A stretch of DNA of 64,000 nt from Thermodesulfovibrionia bacterium (GTDB lineage Bacteria; Nitrospirota; Thermodesulfovibrionia; UBA6902; BMS3Bbin08): assembly GCA_030694425.1 (NCBI GenBank), contig JAUXYI010000010.1:18595-82594 (forward strand). Reading direction: 5' to 3'. Made by a program: the position numbers and the translations under genes. The notes beneath the pieces were generated by a model. That model saw only the letters and a program-made list of their open reading frames with translations. It ran no database searches and was not told the origin of the DNA. Below, piece after piece: positions 40,334 through 56,174 of this stretch (position 1 is its first letter; each line of letters opens with the position of its first letter).

Positions 40334-41362
40334 TTAAAAAACCAACCACGGCTGCGGCAGGAATAATTTTTCATACATCATAAGTGCAAACCGGTCAGTC
40401 ATTCCAGCTATAAAATCACACACTATCCTTTCTTTCTTGTCTATTGTTTCCTTCGGTATCTCTTTAAACACTTCATCAGTATGCTTTAGATAATAATCAT
40501 ATAGGTCAAAGAGAATCTTTTTTGCCTTTTTAAATTCCCTTTTTGTCACTTCACTCTCATAAATATTTTCATAGAGGAAATCTCTCAGGGCATACGTTGT
40601 TTTTTTGATATCATCGCTCATCTGAATTTCTTTAAGCCCGTTAGCCTGTGAGGTATAAATAACATCCCTGACCAATGTATTAATCCTCTTAGAATGGGAC
40701 TCTCCTATCTTGAAGAACTCCTGTGGTATATCGGACTTCTTGAGCACGCCTGCCCTCATCGCATCATCAAGGTCATGATTAACATAAGCAATGATATCAG
40801 AAATCCTGACCACCTCGCCTTCAAGAGTCATGATTTCCCCTTGCTTTGAAAAAATTTTCCCTTTGCCCTTTGAATGTTTTAAAATCCCGTCCCTTACTTC
40901 ATGGGTAAGATTAAGACCCTGTCCGTTTCTCTCAAGGACATCCACAACCCGCAGGCTCTGCTCGTAATGCTCAAAACCTCCGGGATAAATTTCGCGAAGG
41001 ACATCTTCTCCTGCATGCCCAAAAGGCGTATGTCCAATGTCATGCCCGAGGGCAATAGCCTCTGTAAGGTCTTCATTAAGCCTGAGCGCCCTTGCGATTG
41101 TCCTTGCAATCTGTGACACTTCAAGGGTATGCGTCAACCGCGTTCTGTAATGATCGCCCTTTGGGGCAAGAAATACCTGTGTTTTATGTTTTAGCCTTCT
41201 AAATGCCTTTGAATGTATAATCCTATCTCTGTCCCTTTGAAAGCATGTCCTTATATCGCCTTCTTTTTCGGGTTTTAACCTGCCTTTACTCTGTGAACTC
41301 AGACATGCCTTTGGATGAAAGGTTTTTCTCTCTATTTCTTCTGTCTGTTCACGGATTGTCAT
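40334..41362 (-). CDS. dgt: dGTPase-like HD-domain phosphohydrolase
   Basis: [16 protein letters not shown]...[11 protein letters not shown]. Confidence 0.8.
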
Positions 41363-41460
41363 ACAAATAGATTAAATTGTCGGTTCTTTATATTCAAGAC
41401 CTCTTTTTAGATCATTTACTAAGCAGTTCATAAGTAGTAACACATCATTGGCTCCTTTTT

Positions 41461-41520
41461 GTCATTGCGGCTTGTCCGCAATCCTTCTTTAAAAAAAGAT
41501 TCCCGACAAGCGGGAATGAC
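41461..41520. repeat. GTCATTGCGGCTTGTCCGCAATCC...GATTCCCGACAAGCGGGAATGAC palindromic repeat
   Basis: Direct reading of the sequence. Confidence 0.7.
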
Positions 41521-41568
41521 ATACAAGGCAAGCTATTCATGGACTCATTAGTTATCATGTGACTTTAC

Positions 41569-43587
41569 TTATGACTGCCTTAGTAATTTGTTATTAGGGG
41601 TATTTTGGGAATCTGCAAGAAAATCCCTTATATCATCTATTGCTGTAGTCATCCTGCATTCGGGAAGGGAATTCAAAAAATGCACTCCGTAACCCTTTGT
41701 CATAAGTCTTGAATCAAGGATTGCAATAATGCCCTTATCTGTTTTTGTTCTTATCAATCTTCCAAAGCCTTGTTTAAGCAGGATTGCTGCCTGAGGGACT
41801 TGATAATGTGAAAAGGGGTCTTTGTCTTCTCTTTGAAGCGCCTCCATCCTTGCCTCAGTAATTGGCGCATCAGGGACAGCAAATGGAAGTTTTGTTATTA
41901 TCACACATTGTAAATCATCTCCGGGAACATCAATGCCCTGCCAGAAAGTATATGTGCCAAACAGTGCAGAATTATTATCATTTTTAAATTTTTCAATCAA
42001 CCTGTAACTGTCTGCATCTCCCTGTTTATAGATTTTAACTCCTGCTACATCAACGGTATCATAAGCCTTGTTAAGAAGGCTGTAACTTGTGAAAAGCACA
42101 AGCGTCCTTCCCCTCATTATTTCAAGAATCTTTTTCAGCCTGTCAATCAATCTTTCTTCAAAATCTTTCGCCCTTGGCTCTGAGAGGTCATCGGCTATGT
42201 AAAGGATAGATTGCTCTTTATAATTAAAAGGAGACTCCAGAAGAAGTCCCTCTGCATCCTGTAACCCGAGACGCTCTTTTATATAATCAAAATTATTATT
42301 GATGGAAAGCGTTGCTGACGTAAGAATAGCAGAACTTAGATTATCAAAAACACCTGTTTTAAGTAATTTTGCTATTTCTATGGGCGTTGCTACAAACCTC
42401 AACATTTTTCCATCTTTCTCAGTCCAGTAGACATAACCTTCAAGTTCCTGCATTAATATTGTTTTCAGGGAATTCAAGAACTCTTCACATCTATTCATAA
42501 GGGCGATTATCCCTTTCTTTTCATCCTCATCACCTGATGCTTTATATACACCGCCAAGCTGATTAAATAGTTTTGATAGAGGCTCAGATATTGTATCCCC
42601 CGCAAATCCCTTTTCATGGATTCTCAATGTGGTTAAATTATTCAATCTCTGAGCAAGCTCCTGAAAGAATATATCGCCTTTTATCCGCACCATGTTTAAA
42701 AGTGCATTTGCCTCTGAGAAGTCGCTCTGAGAAAGCCATTTAAGCCTTATGAGCAAACCCTTGCCGTGCGTGCTCAGAATGGAATCAAGCAGATGTTTGA
42801 GTTTATAGTTGGATATTTCTACTCCGAGATAATCTGCTGCCACATCCTCAAGCTCGTGTGCCTCATCAAAGACCGTAATATCAAAATGCGGCAGAACCTG
42901 CCAGCCTGAAGCAATATGCGCAAAAAAGAGATGATGGTTTGTGACAAGGACATGAGCGCGCCTTTCATTTGCCTTTGCCTTTTGATAAAAACATCTATTA
43001 AAAAGTTTGCAGTCCTTGCCATAGCATAAATCGCCTTCTCTGCAAACCTTCTGCCAGAGACTTCCTCTTATATCAATCTCAGCCCTGATGCCTGTGTCGG
43101 TTCCCCTTATCCAATTTAGTAATGCATCTGTTTCACGAATCTCATCTATTTCAAAAAGTCCGTGGGTCTTTGTCTGTTCCAGTCTCCTCAGGCACACATA
43201 ATTCTCACTTCCGAGACAGAGTGCGAACCGCAGATTTTTAAAGATATTATCTCTTAAGAAAGGAAGTTCTTTTTCAATAAGCTGTCTCTGGAGCGCCTTT
43301 GTGTATGTTGATACAACTACCCTTTTACTGCTTGAACCACTTAAACTGTTTGTCCCGAAATATCGGGATGAACTATTTTCATCAAGCACCCATTCAATAA
43401 CAGGGACAAGATAGGCAAGGCTTTTGCCGACGCCTGTACCTGCCTCTACTATCAGGTGGTTTTTATTTCTCAGGGCTTTATCAATTGCCTCTGCCATTGC
43501 CTGCTGTTCAGGTCTTTGTTCATAGGCATGAAGCGTCTTGGAGAGGACACCGCTGATACCAAAAAAATTATTTAACATTTTCATCAC
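41569..43587 (-). CDS. dinG: DinG/Rad3-family ATP-dependent DNA helicase
   Basis: Walker A AGTGVGKSLAYL, a DEAH-like VFDEAHEL motif, and an FeS Cys cluster. Confidence 0.8.
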   Translation of the reverse strand: MMKMLNNFFGISGVLSKTLHAYEQRPEQQAMAEAIDKALRNKNHLIVEAGTGVGKSLAYLVPVIEWVLDENSSSRYFGTNSLSGSSSKRVVVSTYTKALQRQLIEKELPFLRDNIFKNLRFALCLGSENYVCLRRLEQTKTHGLFEIDEIRETDALLNWIRGTDTGIRAEIDIRGSLWQKVCREGDLCYGKDCKLFNRCFYQKAKANERRAHVLVTNHHLFFAHIASGWQVLPHFDITVFDEAHELEDVAADYLGVEISNYKLKHLLDSILSTHGKGLLIRLKWLSQSDFSEANALLNMVRIKGDIFFQELAQRLNNLTTLRIHEKGFAGDTISEPLSKLFNQLGGVYKASGDEDEKKGIIALMNRCEEFLNSLKTILMQELEGYVYWTEKDGKMLRFVATPIEIAKLLKTGVFDNLSSAILTSATLSINNNFDYIKERLGLQDAEGLLLESPFNYKEQSILYIADDLSEPRAKDFEERLIDRLKKILEIMRGRTLVLFTSYSLLNKAYDTVDVAGVKIYKQGDADSYRLIEKFKNDNNSALFGTYTFWQGIDVPGDDLQCVIITKLPFAVPDAPITEARMEALQREDKDPFSHYQVPQAAILLKQGFGRLIRTKTDKGIIAILDSRLMTKGYGVHFLNSLPECRMTTAIDDIRDFLADSQNTPNNKLLRQS

Positions 43588-46929: not shown

Positions 46930-47490
46930 TTATATCCTCTCATACACCCAGACCCTTCCGCCACCTTTTATTTCATCTATTCTTTTTACAAGCCTTTTCT
47001 TGTGAAGATTTAATAATCTTGTGCCACTTGTATTAGCCTCAAGCTTCATAATCTCTGATAATTCTTTAGCAGTAATTTTGCCTTTTTTTACAATAAGTTC
47101 CAGAGTTTCCTTAAGATAATTGTTTAAGTTGCCGAGAAGTATTTTCTTCCCATTTTTCATATCTGCTATGACAGCTAAATCCTTCCTCTCCAGAGCTACT
47201 TCTATGTTCTCTTTTTGGTTGTCATTAAGACCCGCAAGAATGATGTATTTGTCTCCGTACTCGTTGCTCAATAAACGGGATATAAGTTTTGCCACAATCT
47301 CATCGGCACAGGAATAATCAATTATTCCTATCTTAGAGAAATCAAGGGCAATAACCTCTCCATCTTTTTCTTTCTCAATATCTCTCTTAATCCGCTCCCG
47401 TATCACCTGACCCGATTGTCTCGTAACAAGGTCGGATGAACCATTCTTGAGTTCTTCTTTAAGGAGTTTATAGAGATTATAAGTTTGCAT
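46930..47490 (-). CDS. STAS-like (DUF4325-like) plus C-terminal wHTH protein, last gene of a three-gene overlapping operon
   Basis: ...VIALDFSKIGIIDYSCADEIVAKL... followed by a C-terminal helix-turn-helix. It overlaps the MTase gene by 14 nt. Confidence 0.4.
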   Translation of the reverse strand: MQTYNLYKLLKEELKNGSSDLVTRQSGQVIRERIKRDIEKEKDGEVIALDFSKIGIIDYSCADEIVAKLISRLLSNEYGDKYIILAGLNDNQKENIEVALERKDLAVIADMKNGKKILLGNLNNYLKETLELIVKKGKITAKELSEIMKLEANTSGTRLLNLHKKRLVKRIDEIKGGGRVWVYERI

Positions 47491-48505
47491 AACTTTCTTT
47501 TAAATCTGAATTGTCTATCTTTGAACCGAATTTCAATTTCTTCGGGTCAATCTTTTTATCAAATTTAACAGGGTCTTTAAAGACATATGGCAGATTGAGG
47601 ATTTCTTTCTTAAAATCAATATCCTTCTTCTTCTGAATAATAATTTCAATTTTATTCGGATTATTATCTAAAAATCCCCCTGCATCCCCCTTTTTAGCAA
47701 AAGGGGGCAAGGGGGGATTTTTCTCACCATTTATTAGCTTCTCTTTAATTATTGGCAAGAAGTCCTTGTTGGTTTCATATCCGATAAAGTCCCTTCTGAG
47801 ATTTCTTGCAGCAAGGCATGTTGTGCCGCTCCCAAGGAATGGGTCAAGAACTGTATCTCCTACGAAACTGAACATTTTAATTAATCTTTTTGGTAATTCT
47901 TCTGGAAACATTGCAAGGTGTTTGTCCTGTTTTTCACCAGAGAAATTCCAGTGTCCATAAAAATATTCGTTCCATTCTTCAGTAGTAAGTTTAGATTTTT
48001 CTTTTATCTCTCGACTTACTTTCGGTGGATCACCGAGCTTCTTGAATATCAGAATAAACTCATAATCGAATTTGATGATTCCATTCCTTGGATACGGGAA
48101 AGACCCCATAATTGTAGCTCCGCCTGTTGTATTACATGTCGTAACCTTTTGCCAGATAATCGCTCCCATATAATCAAATCCAATTGTTTCACAGAATTTT
48201 ATTATTTCTTCTCTAATTGGAATAATTTTGTATCTTCCGTAATAAACAGACCTTGCGAACTGGTCTCCAATGTTTATGCATAAACGACAGCCGTTATGTA
48301 ATACGCGGTAGCACTCTTTCCATACAAGGTTCAGATTATTTATGTAATCCTCGTAACTGTCATTAAACCCTATCTGGCTTCCATTGCCATAGTCTTTCAA
48401 TTGCCAGTAAGGAGGTGAGGTGATGATGAGATGAACGCTTTCATCTTTTAGTTCATCCATCCTCCTGCTGTCGCCAATGATTATGTTTGTTTTAGGGTTT
48501 ATCAT
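47477..48505 (-). CDS. beta-class DNA methyltransferase (N4-C/N6-A, SPPY then DPFLGSGTT)
   Basis: Motif IV IITSPPYW precedes motif I LDPFLGSGTTCLAA. An in-frame GC-palindrome repeat insertion lies near the 3' end. Confidence 0.8.
   Translation of the reverse strand: MINPKTNIIIGDSRRMDELKDESVHLIITSPPYWQLKDYGNGSQIGFNDSYEDYINNLNLVWKECYRVLHNGCRLCINIGDQFARSVYYGRYKIIPIREEIIKFCETIGFDYMGAIIWQKVTTCNTTGGATIMGSFPYPRNGIIKFDYEFILIFKKLGDPPKVSREIKEKSKLTTEEWNEYFYGHWNFSGEKQDKHLAMFPEELPKRLIKMFSFVGDTVLDPFLGSGTTCLAARNLRRDFIGYETNKDFLPIIKEKLINGEKNPPLPPFAKKGDAGGFLDNNPNKIEIIIQKKKDIDFKKEILNLPYVFKDPVKFDKKIDPKKLKFGSKIDNSDLKESYANL
47673..47722. repeat. GC-rich palindromic repeat in-frame inside the MTase gene
   Basis: aaatccccctgcatccccctttttagcaaaagggggcaaggggggattt encodes PPLPPFAKKGDAGGF. 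Confidence 0.65.
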
Positions 48506-49349
48506 TTTTTATTTTATTCGCCCTATAGAGAAGTCCAAATTGAACACCATTCAGTGGATCAGGTTGTTTACCATAATGATCACTTAACACAGAAGTATTT
48601 CTCGATAATCCCAGCAAATAATTAGATGCTCGGTTCTTTTTTTCTATTTCCATTTTATACGCTACCAATTCAAAGCCGATATCAGATAACTGCCATCCTC
48701 CATATGTTTGCATATGTGTTAGAAGCTTCTTTTTCCCGAGTGATCTTATTGTAAAATTTATATCCCTTCCCCTCATTAGGTATTTAGTGAGCAATAAATT
48801 CTCTAAATCAGTATCGCTCATAAAACCATTTTTCTTGTCGCTTATGTCTATGCAAATCTTTTTAAGTTTTTCATTGACTGATTCTGAAAACTTAGCCATA
48901 TCTATCTGAGACTCTTTTTGTTCAACCTTCTTTTTGTCAAACCAACCTGCCTGCTTTAAGTCTTTGATAAACGATGTGATAGCCTTAACAATTGACCTGG
49001 GTTTGTCACGATCAAACGGGATATAGGGTTTTTGATCAATAGTTGGAACAGTACAGTTTTTATCTACTAAGTAAATCGCCTTTTCCGGCTTATTTTTGAA
49101 CTTTTGTGTTGCTTGTCCCATTTCATGAGAAACGCTTGAAGAAGGAGAGCTTCCTATTCGAGGCGTAATCAAAAAAATTGCTCCCTCAGCAGAGTCAAAG
49201 TAATGTTCTTCTTTATCTTGAAGGGTCTTCCCTTTATTAGAAGATAAAGGGATCATGCTTACTTCAATATCAAGTTCAGCAAGAAAATCCTTAAAGTCAC
49301 GCGCTAAATCTTCTTCTTGAGTGTCATATAAAAGTAAAATATTATTCAT
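48492..49349 (-). CDS. hypothetical protein with N-terminal TIR-like/nucleotide-binding alpha/beta domain and C-terminal wHTH-like region (tentative)
   Basis: MNNILLLYDTQEEDLARDFKDFLAELDIEV...AIFLITPR...AIYLVDKN. It is the first gene of the overlapping operon. Confidence 0.3.
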   Translation of the reverse strand: MNNILLLYDTQEEDLARDFKDFLAELDIEVSMIPLSSNKGKTLQDKEEHYFDSAEGAIFLITPRIGSSPSSSVSHEMGQATQKFKNKPEKAIYLVDKNCTVPTIDQKPYIPFDRDKPRSIVKAITSFIKDLKQAGWFDKKKVEQKESQIDMAKFSESVNEKLKKICIDISDKKNGFMSDTDLENLLLTKYLMRGRDINFTIRSLGKKKLLTHMQTYGGWQLSDIGFELVAYKMEIEKKNRASNYLLGLSRNTSVLSDHYGKQPDPLNGVQFGLLYRANKIKNDKP

Positions 49350-49541: not shown

Positions 49542-51362
49542 TCATACACTCACACCCTTCCGACATGCAAATAAAGACGGCTGATTTCCTTCTCGGTTTT
49601 TCACATTAGCAAACTGTTCACGGAAAGCAATCCATTCGCCTTCGTTTATATTAATTAACATTGTCTTGGCCAATGACAAAATCTGATTAACAATATCTTC
49701 ATAAGTCACGTCACAAGCAACCTGATTAATATCGAGTCTCATTAAGACATCTTTTGTATAAGGTCGTTTGGCATCTAAAAATGTTATTGAGGCAAGCAGT
49801 TCTTGAACATATATGCTATTGAGAATAGCCCATACAAAGACAGCTTCTGAAATATTTTCAAAACCTAATAAATAGCAGGTATCGTCCAGCATGAGAGGCT
49901 TGCCGTTCACAGGCAATATCAGAGAAAAGTTTGACCGCTTATAAAGACCGGAGATTGCAACTTTATACGGTTTGAAAGAATACTCTCCCACTCCGAATAT
50001 TGAAAACAACGGTTTGTTTTTATAAATGGTTGATTTCCGCTGATCAAAATAATGTTTATGTTCCATTAAATAACGATAGAGTTTAGGGAATTTATATTCA
50101 ATATATGTTGTGCTTTCTCCGATCATTCTTTGTGTTACAATTACATATTTTCTATGCTGCGTTATTACCGGAGAATTCAAATCGGAACTTTTTATCAACC
50201 CGTACACCAGTTCATCTTCAATATCTACTTCCTGTCCCAACCCGTTACGATATTTATTGTAGGGCAGTATTTCAAGCTCCATGATATTTGAGCAGTCATG
50301 TTTTATCCCCTGCCTCCATATGTATCGAGAAACGCCGTCATATTTTTTATGCGTTCCGTAAGAAGTCATATCGGAAACAAATTTATCTCCAACCCAGCCA
50401 AATGTATTTTCAACAACATTTGGAGCGGCGAGCATTGAGACCTTGCATGAAAAAGCGGATCGATTATCATTCTTGCCAAAGCTGCATTTGAATAATGAGG
50501 CCTCTACAGAAGCGTCAAAGTGTTCTTTGGCATTAATTCTCATGGCAACTGTATTGTGAATGTTGTAGTTCATCTTCGGCAAATCGCAGATCAAGTTTTT
50601 AATCACAGCATTCTTTGTCAGCATTGCCATATGTCCGTTATACTTTGAAAACAACTTAATCATCATTAGGATGATGTATTCACAGATGTCAAAATTTCCC
50701 TTGCCGGTAATAGCATCAAGTCCATTGAGCGCTTTGAAATTACTTTTATTGGGAAGGTTTCGGGCATTTAAGCTTCCCAATTCAGAGTTAGTCACCCACG
50801 GCGGATTGCCTAATATCAAAACATTTTTAGAGCCAATAAATCTTTCAATTTTTCCAAAATCAAATTCGAAAACATTATCAAGGTGTAGACATATCTTCGG
50901 TTTGTTTAATTCCGGCTTATTTATAAAATACTCAAGAATGCTGAATTTAGTCTGCCAATAATATGGCTCGTGAATTTCTACTCCGTGAATTATTTTTACT
51001 TTCTCAAAAAACTTGATGGCTGACAGTAAAAAAGAGCCTTTACCGAAAGTGGGCTCGATTATTACATCCGGCGATATATTCTCTGCAATCAAATATGAAC
51101 ATATTGAATCTGTCAATTCAGGAGGGGTCTGAAAATCTCCATACTCACGTCTGTCGATTCCATCGGAAACCATAAAGCATGGTTCAAGGATTTCCAGCAG
51201 CGTTAAGAAATCCTCCTGACTTCTGAAAAACGTTTCAATTCCCGAAATTTCAGCCAATAGATTATTGGCGAGTTTGAAATCGGTCATATTGCCGATTCTT
51301 GTCTTGAGGTATTGAATTGTATCAGGCTGTAGATGTCTTATTGCAGATCGCATTGTTATCAA
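49542..51362 (-). CDS. type II N6-adenine DNA methyltransferase (gamma-class, NPPW) with large C-terminal TRD
   Basis: Motif I EPTFGKGSF precedes motif IV LGNPPW. It overlaps the downstream REase-like gene by 4 nt. Confidence 0.75.
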   Translation of the reverse strand: MITMRSAIRHLQPDTIQYLKTRIGNMTDFKLANNLLAEISGIETFFRSQEDFLTLLEILEPCFMVSDGIDRREYGDFQTPPELTDSICSYLIAENISPDVIIEPTFGKGSFLLSAIKFFEKVKIIHGVEIHEPYYWQTKFSILEYFINKPELNKPKICLHLDNVFEFDFGKIERFIGSKNVLILGNPPWVTNSELGSLNARNLPNKSNFKALNGLDAITGKGNFDICEYIILMMIKLFSKYNGHMAMLTKNAVIKNLICDLPKMNYNIHNTVAMRINAKEHFDASVEASLFKCSFGKNDNRSAFSCKVSMLAAPNVVENTFGWVGDKFVSDMTSYGTHKKYDGVSRYIWRQGIKHDCSNIMELEILPYNKYRNGLGQEVDIEDELVYGLIKSSDLNSPVITQHRKYVIVTQRMIGESTTYIEYKFPKLYRYLMEHKHYFDQRKSTIYKNKPLFSIFGVGEYSFKPYKVAISGLYKRSNFSLILPVNGKPLMLDDTCYLLGFENISEAVFVWAILNSIYVQELLASITFLDAKRPYTKDVLMRLDINQVACDVTYEDIVNQILSLAKTMLININEGEWIAFREQFANVKNREGNQPSLFACRKGVSV

Positions 51363-52033
51363 CTCTCCGATTTACCGATAATTTTAACTATTCCTTGAAC
51401 GTCTTCATTTAAATCTAGAATTCTTCCATACTGTAACCGCCATTGCAGTGCATTTGATATGGTCAGATATCCTTGTTCAGGCGGACTGTCAAGTATTTCT
51501 TGTGCCAACTTATTCATGGTAATTTCATCGGCGGGAATGTTTCTGTCAGTTAAGTATGCGACAATATCCTCTGCATTTGCGTTGTTCTCCAGCATTTGAC
51601 TGATAGTTCGCGTTAATTGATAATCTGCTGTTCGATTTTTATCTATAAACGTACAGCTTAGAAAATTAAGTCTGGATATTTTCTTTGCAGGATCATCATT
51701 TTTTTCATAAACAAACACTAACAGGTTATATCCTAAACCATATATTTTTTGACGTGCATTTCTAAAAGGGCATGATGATTGAGGTTGTTTAATAGAGGTA
51801 ACTTTAATATCTGTATTTATATCTTCGGAGGGCATGTCAATGCCGTTTGCAGACGAGCCTATTATGTAATCATACTTTGATGAAAGATAGTCCTGAAACT
51901 TGTGTTCAATAAAAGTTCCAACAGCCTTGCCATCCGTTATTCCAAACAAGGCAGAATTATCATATTGGGATTCAGCTTCACAAAAAGCCTTTGCTTCTTT
52001 AATCAAAATATCAATGGTCAGTTTCTGCCTCAT
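51359..52033 (-). CDS. putative type II restriction endonuclease
   Basis: The protein has 224 aa. A PD-(D/E)xK-like IDMPSEDINTDIK segment is present. The gene is translationally coupled to the MTase. Confidence 0.45.
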   Translation of the reverse strand: MRQKLTIDILIKEAKAFCEAESQYDNSALFGITDGKAVGTFIEHKFQDYLSSKYDYIIGSSANGIDMPSEDINTDIKVTSIKQPQSSCPFRNARQKIYGLGYNLLVFVYEKNDDPAKKISRLNFLSCTFIDKNRTADYQLTRTISQMLENNANAEDIVAYLTDRNIPADEITMNKLAQEILDSPPEQGYLTISNALQWRLQYGRILDLNEDVQGIVKIIGKSES

Positions 52034-52143: not shown

Positions 52144-53151
52144 TTAATTAACCAATGAAGAATGTTTAAGCAATTTGCTGATATTTGGCTTGTTCGATGT
52201 CTTCAACATTTCTGACTCTTGCCCTTTAAGAATAGTATTAACCGGCGGAATATTCCATGCAGTGATTGAATCGCAAAGCCATCTATCATGAAAGCTTGAG
52301 AGTATATCCTGGTCAATTATAGTTTTCCATTCAATAGTTATTCCTTTATTATGTAATTCAGCCCTTAATCTTAAAAATTCATTTACTGCTGATTGTGTTT
52401 TATTTTGATCGCCAGAAATTATAACGAAGCTATTTAGCTTAGAAGCATCAAGACTATCGGCCAGAATCTCAAAAGCCTTTTTATCAAAATGCTTATCTAT
52501 CCAGTAGGCTGTTCCTTTTAAGGATTTTATTATCTCTTGTAGTCTTTTTATATTTGAAAATGGTGTTTCTGGTGAAATAAATTGATGAGCAGGTATCTGT
52601 GTAATATCCTGCTGCCATAAGACTTTGACATCTCTGGTATTTTTGTTATATGAAACAATACCGCCGAGTTTTAGAATTTCTAGGAAATTATTAAGCACAA
52701 CATCTTGGAAATCCAGGTGAAAATTGTGATGTTTTAATAAATTGTAGATATTTATTCGTTTAATGTTTTTACTGCCGCTTAAAACCTGAGAAATTAAAAT
52801 GACAGCAGGATGCAATTTAAGTGCTTCACCAAGAATTCTTTTTGCTTCGACTCCATTATTTTTTATGTACTTTTGGTTATAGTATTCTTTACCGAAAGAT
52901 GTTAGAGACACGCTTATTTCTTTAATTTTGTTTTCGATATTATTACTCGTAATGAAGTCGTACCCCTGCACAACTTTCTCTTTTTCTTCGGTCTTTATAA
53001 AATCCATACTTTCAAGAAATGCTATTTCGTCACTGTAATTTACTGTCTTCGACAATTCGCCATGTGCAATTCGCTTTATCAATTCATCAAAATATTTCCA
53101 TGGAAGATTTGTAATAATATATTTAGTATCCTTAGTTTCTGTCTCTTCCAC
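52144..53151 (-). CDS. hypothetical protein (335 aa), unknown function, defence-island context
   Basis: No family recognised. A possible Rx5H (HEPN-like) segment RLRAELH is present. The start codon shares the ATGA overlap with the upstream gene. Confidence 0.4.
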   Translation of the reverse strand: MEETETKDTKYIITNLPWKYFDELIKRIAHGELSKTVNYSDEIAFLESMDFIKTEEKEKVVQGYDFITSNNIENKIKEISVSLTSFGKEYYNQKYIKNNGVEAKRILGEALKLHPAVILISQVLSGSKNIKRINIYNLLKHHNFHLDFQDVVLNNFLEILKLGGIVSYNKNTRDVKVLWQQDITQIPAHQFISPETPFSNIKRLQEIIKSLKGTAYWIDKHFDKKAFEILADSLDASKLNSFVIISGDQNKTQSAVNEFLRLRAELHNKGITIEWKTIIDQDILSSFHDRWLCDSITAWNIPPVNTILKGQESEMLKTSNKPNISKLLKHSSLVN

Positions 53152-53834
53152 TATTTATTCTCTCCAAAAACAGACTTTTTTGCGCTATAAATATTTTTGA
53201 AAAGTTCTTCGATAGCCTCTCTCGATACCCCAATATCCAAATTTATATTTAAATTGAGAATTAACTTGATATCTCCAGAATGGGGTTTGTGAGGATCGAT
53301 GACTGTTGCCCGCGATTGTGCTTTTTCTTTTTTATTTATATTCTCAGGCGTTTCCTTTATAGGTTTTTTTTGTTGTGATTCTAAAGAAATAAGATCCCCA
53401 TCACTGTTGACGACATCTCTCAGGGCTAAAAAACAGTTAGTTATCATTCTTAACATGCTTTGCTTAACATCCGTAAAATGATTTTTAAAATAGTTTCTAA
53501 CTTCATTGTCATTTTCTGAATTTAAAGCATCTTTTACTGTGTTAAATAAATCTTCGTATACAACACTAATTTTATCCTTCAGACATTGCTTAAATTTGTC
53601 TGGCGTTCCTCTTAAATCATTTGCGGTATTGCTTAAGGTATTGTCGTCATTGAGGAACCCTAAAGTGTTTAACATAGCAATAACATAGGTGGGAGAGCCT
53701 ATGCCAAGAGTCTTCAGTTTTTGATTGTTTATTGGTTTAGGTTCTCTTCTCTCATGGATTAATTTAAAAATTTTGATTGTATCCCCACGCCCAGCATAAG
53801 GTAATTTTGGTTTTTCTTCTGAAGCTCTAGCCAT
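53151..53834 (-). CDS. hypothetical protein (227 aa), unknown function, coupled to 52144-53151
   Basis: ORF with a 1-nt overlap (ATGA) to the downstream gene. No recognisable motifs. Confidence 0.4.
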   Translation of the reverse strand: MARASEEKPKLPYAGRGDTIKIFKLIHERREPKPINNQKLKTLGIGSPTYVIAMLNTLGFLNDDNTLSNTANDLRGTPDKFKQCLKDKISVVYEDLFNTVKDALNSENDNEVRNYFKNHFTDVKQSMLRMITNCFLALRDVVNSDGDLISLESQQKKPIKETPENINKKEKAQSRATVIDPHKPHSGDIKLILNLNINLDIGVSREAIEELFKNIYSAKKSVFGENK

Positions 53835-53936: not shown

Positions 53937-54116
53937 TCAATGTAAAATTTCATTTTGCATAGCCATATCAATTGCGCTATACCAGTCTATATAATCGCCA
54001 ATTTTATCTTCAATAACTTGCAACTCCTTTTTCGTAAACTTTCTTCCAAGTTCTTCTTCTGCAACATTTTGAACATCTTCAAGATTAATTGAATAAATGA
54101 TTTTTGAGGTATTCAT
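53937..54116 (-). CDS. hypothetical small protein (59 aa from MNTSKIIYSINLED...)
   Basis: The ORF's upstream extension is repeat-derived, so the start is set at 54116. Confidence 0.3.
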   Translation of the reverse strand: MNTSKIIYSINLEDVQNVAEEELGRKFTKKELQVIEDKIGDYIDWYSAIDMAMQNEILH

Positions 54117-54124
54117 ATTCTCTG

Positions 54125-54175
54125 TACCCCTCACCCTAACCCTCTCCCGCAAGGGGAGAGGGGAATGGATGACAC
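54125..54175. repeat. GC-rich palindrome CCCCTCACCCTAACCCTCTCCCGCAAGGGGAGAGGGGAATGG
   Basis: Direct reading of the sequence. Confidence 0.65.
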
Positions 54176-54199: not shown

Positions 54200-54424
54200 T
54201 TATTTCTGTATAAAACCCGCTGCCTTTTGCAGGCCTTCGCTAAAAGATTGAATGTCCTCTTCAAAGACCATTACCCTGTTATGCTCACGGGACTCTCCGA
54301 CCTTCCTCGATTCACTAATTACCAGATACTTTGAACCGCTGGTCGCCTCTTTGACATCAAAGAAATAGGTGCGACTGCCAGCCCTTACTTTTTCTGAAAA
54401 TAATTCCTTTTTTTCTGCAGACAT
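54200..54424 (-). CDS. DUF3276/PUR-like small nucleic-acid-binding protein
   Basis: ...RTYFFDVKEATSGSKYLVISESRK... Confidence 0.45.
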   Translation of the reverse strand: MSAEKKELFSEKVRAGSRTYFFDVKEATSGSKYLVISESRKVGESREHNRVMVFEEDIQSFSEGLQKAAGFIQK

Positions 54425-55502: not shown

Positions 55503-56174
55503 CTAAACAATCCTTCCATCCAGCATCCTGATAATTCTTTTGCATTTTGATGCGAGATGTTCATTGTGGGTCACAATTATAAAGGTTATGCCTTTCTTAT
55601 CATTTAGCTCCATCAAAAGCCTGAACAACTCCTCACCCGTCTGGGTATCAAGGTTCCCTGTAGGCTCATCAGCCAGTACAACAGCAGGCTCAAGCATAAG
55701 CGCCCTTGCAACAGCAACCCTCTGCTGTTCTCCACCTGAAAGTTCGCCAGGCTTATGCAGTAATCTATTGGAAAGCCCAACCTCTCCAAGAATTGCCTCT
55801 GCCCTTTTATATGCTTCTTTTTGATTAATACCGGAGATAAGCGCTGGCATCATTGTATTCTCTACTGCATTAAATTCGGGCAAAAGATGATGAAATTGAA
55901 ATACAAAACCAACTGTTTTATTCCTGAAATCAGACAGGGCATCGTTCTTTAAACTGAAAATATCCTTACCGTCATAAAAAATATTTCCTGACGTAGGCCT
56001 ATCAAGAGTGCCAAGTATATGAAGCAGGGTGCTTTTGCCGACGCCAGATGGTCCCATAATTGCTGCCATCTCACCCCTGTATAAATCAAGTGTTATGCCC
56101 TTTAACACATGGAGTTCTCTCCCCGGGGTCAGGAAGGATTTGTTCAGATTATTTATTTTTATGAACGTCTCCAC
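55503..56174 (-). CDS. lolD: lipoprotein-releasing system ATP-binding protein (LolD/MacB-type ABC ATPase)
   Basis: Walker A GPSGVGKST, the LSGGEQQRVAVARAL signature, and Walker B LADEPTGNLD. Confidence 0.8.
   Translation of the reverse strand: METFIKINNLNKSFLTPGRELHVLKGITLDLYRGEMAAIMGPSGVGKSTLLHILGTLDRPTSGNIFYDGKDIFSLKNDALSDFRNKTVGFVFQFHHLLPEFNAVENTMMPALISGINQKEAYKRAEAILGEVGLSNRLLHKPGELSGGEQQRVAVARALMLEPAVVLADEPTGNLDTQTGEELFRLLMELNDKKGITFIIVTHNEHLASKCKRIIRMLDGRIV

Follow-up and report, generated by a model that had tools for sequence, protein, structure and literature searches.

A conserved two-gene module of a DUF5343-type protein and a predicted phospholipase D-fold protein in a defence island of a Thermodesulfovibrionia bacterium

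Within a 64,000-nucleotide stretch of DNA (the window) from a Thermodesulfovibrionia metagenome-assembled genome, two adjoining genes on the minus strand lie next to a restriction-modification (RM) system, and they raise the question of whether they form a functional unit and, if they do, of what kind. The upstream gene, which we call A, encodes 227 amino acids and the downstream gene, B, encodes 335; a reading of the letters alone (the original prediction) had described them as a translationally coupled pair of unknown genes inside a defence island. We conclude that the A-B pair is a real, non-random and conserved module, though its parts are not unprecedented. As to its function, we give an even chance to the reading that A-B works on its own as a horizontally mobile module of two genes, of the defence or toxin type, in which B would be a phospholipase D (PLD)-type nuclease and A its regulator or sensor.

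The first part of the answer comes from the pairing itself. Loci with relatives of B were gathered by look-ups of exact proteins, by a scan of species genomes and by a metagenome scan (with a narrower alignment); 41 of them had at least 700 nucleotides upstream of B, and 31 remained after collapse at 90% identity. At 30 of these 31 non-redundant loci, a gene on the same strand overlaps or abuts the start of B, typically at -1, -4 or -23 nucleotides, and encodes 141-321 amino acids (220-285 in 25 of the 30). The loci belong to Thermodesulfovibrionia, a contig labelled Planctomycetota, Ignavibacteriales, Bacillota (including Gemmiger formicilis), Saccharibacteria and other Patescibacteria, and the archaeon Ferroglobus, and the reciprocal search from the A side leads to B-family genes downstream. 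The original prediction had taken the two genes for a functional module provided that they were syntenic elsewhere and were not fragments of a type I or III RM subunit. Both points are borne out: the pairing is kept across phyla, and both proteins are full length, neither having any similarity to HsdR, HsdM, HsdS, Res or Mod in Pfam, NCBIfam, PADLOC or the PDB. The partners of B comprise a DUF5343 group at 13 loci (after one profile iteration), a second family at 25 loci and two singletons. The two families are collinear over 125 columns (hhalign E = 2.7e-4, probability 41%) and follow a common plan, in which a variable linker separates a conserved N-terminal domain from a highly conserved tail; the tails of both have similar strand-(S/T)x(D/E)(D/E)A-helix patterns. 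Judged by these sequence features, they are likely to be homologous. The identities of A and B to the window proteins are correlated (r = 0.96, n = 12 loci), and at each locus A is the faster-diverging of the two (69% against 82% identity in one case and 54% against 71% in another), a difference that would be expected for a sensor or antitoxin relative to an effector.

The junction between the genes bears on their coupling. One G in the junction sequence (...AAATAGTGGAA), base 53151, belongs to both the TAG stop of A and the GTG start of B, and on the minus strand the junction reads GGAGAGAATAAATAGTGGAA, a TAGTG one-base overlap. The lengths, the coordinates and the shared base had thus been given correctly in the original prediction, whereas the ATGA overlap described there is not present. 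Among ten related loci (62-82% identity) at which the junction was read, eight have TAATG, and at L021 and L027 the stop and the start are a few bases apart. Since the one-base stop/start overlap is largely conserved in relatives, we regard the coupling of A and B as more than a chance feature. The GTG start is supported by the homologues of B, which align to it from residue 1 and conserve its N-terminal residues from that position. A scan for promoters and terminators on the minus strand around the pair gave nothing usable. The GC content over the pair (33-34%) is slightly lower than in the flanks (about 37-40%).

We note some loci at which the pair looks different or has unusual company. At L007 (7411-8837) the pair is decayed: the A homologue has 158 amino acids and lacks the N-terminal 70 residues, the B homologue is shortened to 278 amino acids and lies 113 nucleotides from A, and no defence genes are nearby. 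In Ferroglobus (L015, 191-1552), a 454-amino acid protein with several weak winged-helix matches is encoded directly upstream and overlaps the start of the pair, and it may be a third component there. L004 and L014 (contig_4244, 2.9 Mb, labelled Planctomycetota) have HATPase, A, B and DUF4325 proteins at 55-85% amino acid identity to those of the window, a likeness that means either that the island was transferred horizontally as a whole or that the contig has the wrong taxonomic label.

The lack of sequence matches for B made its evaluation dependent on a predicted structure. B itself matched nothing in Pfam, PADLOC or NCBIfam at E values up to 10, and the original statement that it has no recognisable family signature holds as far as sequence profiles are concerned. 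Profile searches of the PDB with alignments of the B family and of its C-terminal domain returned only spurious matches to prohibitin and NSMCE1 and did not recover MITD1. The AlphaFold model of B (mean predicted local distance difference test score, pLDDT, 83; 20 homologues used) begins with an alpha/beta unit that has a long hairpin (residues 18-83), continues with a helical, winged-helix-like unit (residues 85-177) and a short low-confidence linker, and ends in a compact alpha/beta domain (residues 198-333); on the model, the N-terminal region appears DNA-binding-like. Comparison with known structures, proposed in the original prediction for both proteins, places the end of B within the PLD fold. 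The top Foldseek match in the PDB is the C-terminal PLD-like domain of MITD1 (2ymb, E = 3.1e-4, probability 1.0), with a TM-score of about 0.5 and a root-mean-square deviation of 3.5 over 113 columns for 4a5z, and the next matches are the FAM83 pseudo-PLD domain, PLD3 and a Streptomyces PLD. A viral structure library gave weak PLD-type matches only, none of them meaningful. By this comparison of the model, the C-terminal domain has the PLD alpha/beta fold, and we call it MIT_C/PB-PLD1-like, a designation by predicted fold and motif and not by demonstrated membership of a sequence family.

An exhaustive profile search identified 540 representative clusters at E values up to 0.001, and residue conservation was counted over 137 diverse copies of this domain. 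H288 and R290 of an HDR motif, which directly precedes the strand formed by residues 291-293 in the model, are present in 137/137 copies, and D289 is found in 127. W217 is retained in 136 copies, and the acidic residue two positions further on, with which the domain's first strand ends, is Asp in 120 and Glu in 16. N200 and E265 are each kept in 134 copies, P302 in 133, N300 in 128 and E314 in 117; position 294 varies among S, T, A, G and D in the family. These invariant and near-invariant residues in the aligned sequences point to an active or ligand-binding site. The same alignments bear on the RLRAELH segment, for which a HEPN-type RNase motif had been weakly proposed. It comprises residues 261-267 and is located in helix 253-268 of the alpha/beta domain; H267 is kept in 12 of 20 close homologues of B, and across the 137 relatives the position is K, A, S, E or N, His not being among the five commonest residues. 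As H267 is not conserved, as the PLD fold is not all-helical and as the two genes are conserved separately across phyla, we assign a negligible probability to a HEPN RNase or to a degraded RM subunit.

The domain recurs at the C terminus of SNF2 helicases and GmrSD_N (DUF262) proteins, as well as of a protein combining BpuJI_N with GmrSD_N, an AAA_35/STAND ATPase, and Roc COR-A/COR-B, UDG-family and reverse transcriptase (RVT_1) proteins. The DUF1524 nuclease domain was not detected in the four GmrSD_N proteins that carry the B-type domain, which implies an equivalent effector role for the latter. Going by domain architecture, the spectrum of fusions is the pattern of a putative conflict-system effector. 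It also bears on a different interpretation, in which the PLD-like domain is non-catalytic and binds a ligand, a membrane or a nucleic-acid end, the pair being a DNA-binding regulatory or sensor complex. Such a complex would suit the description of the nearest structure, MITD1, as a PLD fold that binds membranes, the lack of a canonical HKD motif in B, and the winged-helix-like regions that the models suggest in both A and B. However, His and Arg residues without exception in the copies counted, together with the conserved Asn, Glu and Asp, suit catalysis better than lipid binding; the domain has an effector-like C-terminal place on GmrSD_N proteins, helicases and STAND ATPases; and a 2025 computational study (PMC12065111) argues for enzymatic activity. 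We therefore consider a non-catalytic domain rather unlikely. As a separate observation, one B-family representative of roughly 300 amino acids matches the PADLOC BrxC/PglY models (8e-35 and 2.9e-14), which suggests homology between the B family and a part of some BREX ATPase models.

For A, the statement that the pair lacks family signatures does not hold. It matches Pfam DUF5343 (PF17278) with 57.3 bits against a gathering cut-off of 27 (2.7e-15), a family carried by 30 of 32 A homologues in precomputed annotation, and it matches the PADLOC PDC-M34A models PDLC04589 (E = 7e-16) and PDLC04588 (E = 4.5e-6). A literature search on DUF5343 and on PDC-M34 found no papers. The AlphaFold model of A (pLDDT 76; 18 homologues used) has three parts: a confident N-terminal block (residues 16-156), a low-confidence linker and a C-terminal strand-plus-helix tail. 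Residues 16-67 form a helix-helix-helix-hairpin pattern with a helical bundle after it (pLDDT above 90), and from this pattern of secondary structure in the model we infer a winged-helix-like unit. Foldseek found nothing significant for A in the PDB, the best matches being helical regions of DEAH helicases (E about 0.7). Few parts of A are as conserved as the tail: N194, N196, I197 and D200 are invariant in the alignment of homologues, and the tail is the sole part of A detectably common to the partner at L008 (hhalign E = 0.005). We suggest, on the strength of this conservation, that the tail could be a docking element for B.

We infer the following scheme from the pairing of the genes, the island around them, and the predicted fold, invariant residues and fusion partners of the B-type domain. 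A would be translated first, and B would be coupled to it through the one-base stop/start overlap. A would be a regulatory or sensing partner in which a flexible linker joins a winged-helix-like and helical domain to the C-terminal strand-helix peptide, and this peptide probably docks on B, holding it inactive or directing it until a trigger such as infection. B would be the effector, with a DNA-binding-like N-terminal region and the MIT_C/PB-PLD1 HDR domain; the predicted activity of this domain is cleavage of phosphodiester bonds, nucleic acid being the most likely substrate, with His288 as the nucleophile and Arg290 in place of the Lys of classical HKD enzymes. B probably works as a dimer, like the single-HKD nucleases, because each chain has a single HDR motif. 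The role of the A-B unit would then be defence against mobile DNA such as phage, perhaps through abortive infection. In its most specific form, this reading is of a stand-alone, previously unnamed bacterial and archaeal defence system in which the C-terminal peptide of A gates an HDR-type PLD nuclease; we put that forward tentatively, as possible rather than probable.

Much of the scheme would also fit a classical toxin-antitoxin (TA) addiction module, in which A is a DNA-binding antitoxin and autorepressor, its tail neutralises a PLD-type toxin B, and the module persists on mobile islands by post-segregational killing. The putative antitoxin gene comes first and overlaps the next by its stop codon, the layout of A (DNA-binding-like N terminus, disordered linker, conserved tail) resembles that of type II antitoxins, and A evolves faster than B. 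A MazE-PIN TA pair is present in the same island at L005, and recombinase or integrase genes occur near some copies of the A-B pair. On the other hand, A is much larger than typical antitoxins, B occurs without A at L029 and the decayed copy at L007 retains a B-like open reading frame (ORF), and most fusions of the B-type domain are to sensors and NTPases characteristic of defence systems. We judge an addiction module unlikely, while noting that it overlaps with the defence-or-toxin reading we prefer, since TA and abortive-infection defence are not mutually exclusive.

Several observations weigh against a defence or toxin module with a nuclease effector. The solo B at L029, the exception among the 31 loci, together with the listing of the related PADLOC candidate PDC-S05 as a single gene, indicates that B may not depend strictly on A. 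The module is rare. With tblastn, B had no match in phage records and one weak match in plasmids, and the Gemmiger homologue of B had none in plasmids. The PLD assignment comes from one Foldseek search, with the E value and TM-score given above, and the Pfam models for MIT_C (PF16565) and PLDc do not match B at E values up to 10. The canonical HKD motif is altered, with Arg in place of Lys, no conservation of the Asp of HxKxxxxD and no GSxN. PMC12065111 reports no activity for any member of the HDR clade and raises it as an open question, and the title of a paper cited there describes MITD1 as membrane-binding and non-catalytic. Finally, since the fold of A has no significant match in the PDB, a DNA-binding role for it is conjectural.

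The surroundings of the pair (Table 1) help to decide whether it works alone. The original prediction correctly read the adjoining genes downstream as a type II RM pair, and its description of a defence island is borne out by two RM systems downstream and by other RM or TA cargo at the same place in relatives. In the second of these probable systems, an N6_N4 methyltransferase gene is overlapped by 14 nucleotides by a gene for 285 amino acids, which has no Pfam match and is possibly its endonuclease. For this genome, A-B would be a third probable defence module in an island that already has two RM systems.

Table 1. Features of the A-B locus and its surroundings, in window coordinates
Feature	Position	Strand	Description and basis
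Gene A	53151-53834	minus	227 aa, ATG start, TAG stop at 53153-53151; ORF listing
Gene A DUF5343 region, residues 12-140	53415-53801	minus	Pfam match coordinates
Gene A linker, residues 157-188	53271-53366	minus	pLDDT 27-43; conservation falls in both partner families
Gene A C-terminal tail, residues 189-227	53154-53270	minus	IKLILNLNINLDIG.S.EAIEELFKNI...VFG; strand then helix
GGAGAG Shine-Dalgarno for gene B	53160-53165	minus	within 3' end of gene A, 8 nt before GTG; direct reading
Gene B	52144-53151	minus	335 aa, GTG start at 53151-53149; ORF listing
Gene B MIT_C/PB-PLD1-like PLD-fold domain, residues 195-335	52147-52569	minus	predicted effector; Foldseek
W217-I-D219-K-H221 motif	52489-52503	minus	end of first strand of PLD-like domain (213-219); D219 = conserved acidic residue
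HDR motif H288-D289-R290 (CAT GAT AGA)	52282-52290	minus	predicted catalytic His and phosphate-binding Arg
Type II restriction endonuclease	51359-52033		directly downstream of pair; NCBIfam NF052465, 2.9e-103
Type II methyltransferase	49542-51362		downstream of pair; PADLOC MTase_II, 2.3e-134
285-aa gene	48492-49349	minus	no Pfam match
N6_N4 methyltransferase	47477-48505	minus	1.9e-44; with 285-aa gene, second probable RM system
DUF4325 (STAS-like) protein, 186 aa	46930-47490	minus	Pfam 1e-5; far end of variable island; membership uncertain
HD plus HD_assoc protein (dGTPase-like, 342 aa) and DinG-type helicase (672 aa)	40334-43587	minus	next to RmuC
71-aa TTG ORF	53937-54152		doubtful
Inverted repeat	54127-54163		GC-rich, in AT-rich spacer
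74-aa DUF3276 ORF	54200-54424	minus	matches just positions 7-82 of 131-position profile
HATPase_c protein, 280 aa	54498-55340	minus	Pfam HATPase_c at residues 145-246; membership uncertain
ABC ATPase	55503-56174		pairs with FtsX/MacB permease

The cargo beside the pair differs among related genomes: an N6_N4 methyltransferase plus an MjaI-type enzyme at L001, a methyltransferase plus a GIY-YIG nuclease at L004, MazE-PIN and a methyltransferase remnant at L005, and a 997-amino acid methyltransferase-containing protein at L021. The A-B pair stays constant while this RM and TA cargo is swapped, and a motif scan for methyltransferases at the distant loci found none near most of the pairs, and hence no general linkage to RM. 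We take the changing cargo and the missing motifs to mean that the RM neighbourhood reflects co-location in an island and not a specific partnership. These data also address the proposal that A-B is an accessory of the adjacent RM system, for instance as its controller, or as a type IV-like nuclease that depends on modification and acts together with the methyltransferase beside it. Immediately downstream of the pair there is an RM system or a methyltransferase in the window and at L001, L004, L018 and L021, with a methyltransferase remnant at L005, and the layout of B (a DNA-binding region and a nuclease-like domain) resembles that of Mrr- or GmrSD-type enzymes. The RM type is a different one at every locus, however, and most distant loci have no methyltransferase motif near the pair, which makes an RM accessory very improbable.

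Upstream of the pair are a 71-amino acid ORF, a short DUF3276 ORF and the HATPase_c gene. The original prediction described the last as a STAS-HATPase fusion, of which the HATPase half stands. The STAS half was not confirmed: Pfam finds HATPase_c only, a PDB sequence search with residues 1-128 returned nothing and hence no STAS domain, and the STAS-like Pfam match (DUF4325) lies in a separate gene, on the other side of the pair. Orthologues of the HATPase_c gene (78-80% identity to that of the window) are located upstream of the pair at L001-L006, L021 and L022, and orthologues of the DUF4325 gene (83-85%) close the island at L001, L004 and L005. The two genes bracket the variable cargo at every locus of the close clade that is long enough, and the genes outside the brackets differ. 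We suggest that the brackets could be a host system for the embedded genes or the ends of a mobile island.

If the former, the pair in the close clade might belong to a larger HATPase_c and DUF4325 partner-switching circuit, with a kinase and its antagonist controlling the embedded genes. The bracket genes (78-89% identical) are found at six of the six distinct close-clade loci long enough (L001, L004, L005, L006, L021 and L022), the flanking genes beyond them change, and at L021 the HATPase gene is only 37 nucleotides from A. Yet the HATPase_c gene is absent beside distant pairs, and neither bracket gene accompanies the pairs with 30-40% identity in Ferroglobus, Saccharibacteria, Gemmiger, Bacillota and Patescibacteria; unrelated cargo (a GroES-like gene, MazE-PIN and RM systems) separates the brackets from the pair; and the close-clade loci are few and related, so that shared ancestry could explain the linkage. 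We regard such a circuit as quite improbable and retain the autonomous two-gene module.

Some further features of the neighbourhood are recorded here. The GC-rich inverted repeat upstream of the pair (CCCCTCACCC ... GGGAGAGGGG, 17 nucleotides apart) may be a hairpin terminator or a repeat element, and it overlaps the 5' end of the 71-amino acid ORF, which makes that ORF doubtful. The ORF of 74 amino acids with the partial DUF3276 match may be a truncated gene within the island. Beyond the DUF4325 gene, downstream, come a His_Phos_1 (histidine-phosphatase-family) gene and RmuC, and the HD and DinG genes sit a few kilobases past the island.

How does the module compare with systems already described? 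In having an upstream DNA-binding-like gene with a flexible C terminus and a coupled, downstream putative toxin, A-B resembles type II and AbiE-like TA systems; neither A nor B matches a known toxin or antitoxin family by sequence or fold (Pfam, PADLOC and NCBIfam; Foldseek for A). The resemblance to GmrSD/BrxU-type type IV enzymes lies in the occurrence of the B-type domain at the C terminus of GmrSD_N proteins and in a common defence-island setting. Those enzymes have a DUF262 NTPase domain, whereas B has no DUF262 and is a short two-part protein with a separate partner.

The single-HKD PLD nucleases (Nuc, NucT and the nuclease domain of BfiI) share with B the PLD fold and one His motif per chain at the start of a strand. 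They have HxK where B has HxR, and their HxKxxxxD Asp and GSxN are not conserved in B; none of the three is among the best 50 Foldseek matches of B in the PDB. In B, an Asn is found 12-17 positions after H288 and a Glu 26 positions after it. The corresponding residues of Nuc are His94, Lys96, Asn111 and Glu122, and we presume that the Asn and Glu spacing in B is similar.

The closest relationship is to the PB-PLD1 effector of Menshen NsnC, which has been described as a PLD-superfamily domain closest to MIT_C (2YMB), whose signatures are an acidic residue that follows a strand and an HDR motif that precedes one, and for which nuclease activity is predicted (PMC12065111). B has both signatures (D219 and H288-D-R290) and 2YMB as its nearest solved structure, and its domain likewise occurs in defence contexts and is associated with ParB-DUF262 proteins. 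One B homologue (P0034) weakly matches the PADLOC NsnC model (E = 0.026), the sole link to this clade at the level of profiles. The architectures differ: in NsnC an inactive PIN domain precedes PB-PLD1, and in B a winged-helix-like region takes its place; the partners in Menshen are NsnA (ParB-DUF262) and NsnB (an ABC ATPase with DUF3696), and that of B is a DUF5343 protein. We do not assign the locus to Menshen, as the scanned region contains no DUF262 (NsnA) gene and its only ABC ATPase is paired with an FtsX/MacB permease and is not NsnB. The HDR domain has also been reported at the C termini of BrxL (PMC12065111). If our reading is correct, A-B offers a compact two-gene system for asking whether the HDR-type PLD domain is an enzyme, and a positive answer would be the first enzymatic activity for an MIT_C-like HDR domain, with a bearing on BrxL (BREX), Menshen NsnC and human MITD1.

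The 145 candidates that PADLOC lists as embedded in BREX, DISARM or type I RM loci include the two-gene cassette PDC-M34 and the single-gene PDC-S05 (bioRxiv 10.1101/2024.01.29.577857); for PDC-M34 the supplement gives family identifiers only. PDC-M34 is like A-B a two-gene cassette in a defence context, and A matches PDC-M34A. No match to PDC-M34B was found for B (E up to 10) or for any of 71 B-family representatives; the second gene is thus of a different family, and PADLOC would not call the locus PDC-M34. Among the same 71 representatives there are nine model matches (at least four distinct members) to PDC-S05, the best with E = 1.8e-67, but B is not matched by any PDC-S05 model. The definition of PDC-S05 includes no partner gene, whereas the B family nearly always has one. 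A PDC-S05 representative from cold seeps reduced the plating of T7 and T5 about 1000-fold in Escherichia coli (bioRxiv 10.1101/2024.09.26.614923); that protein is described as a RhuM-domain protein, and we do not transfer its phenotype to B. The pairing reported here shows that two candidates listed separately by PADLOC can make up one conserved operon, one gene being related to PDC-M34A and the other belonging to a family that PDC-S05 covers in part, and the annotation of such loci would be altered. The locus falls in neither PADLOC candidate as defined, and is a new combination of a DUF5343-type partner with an MIT_C/PB-PLD1-like putative effector.

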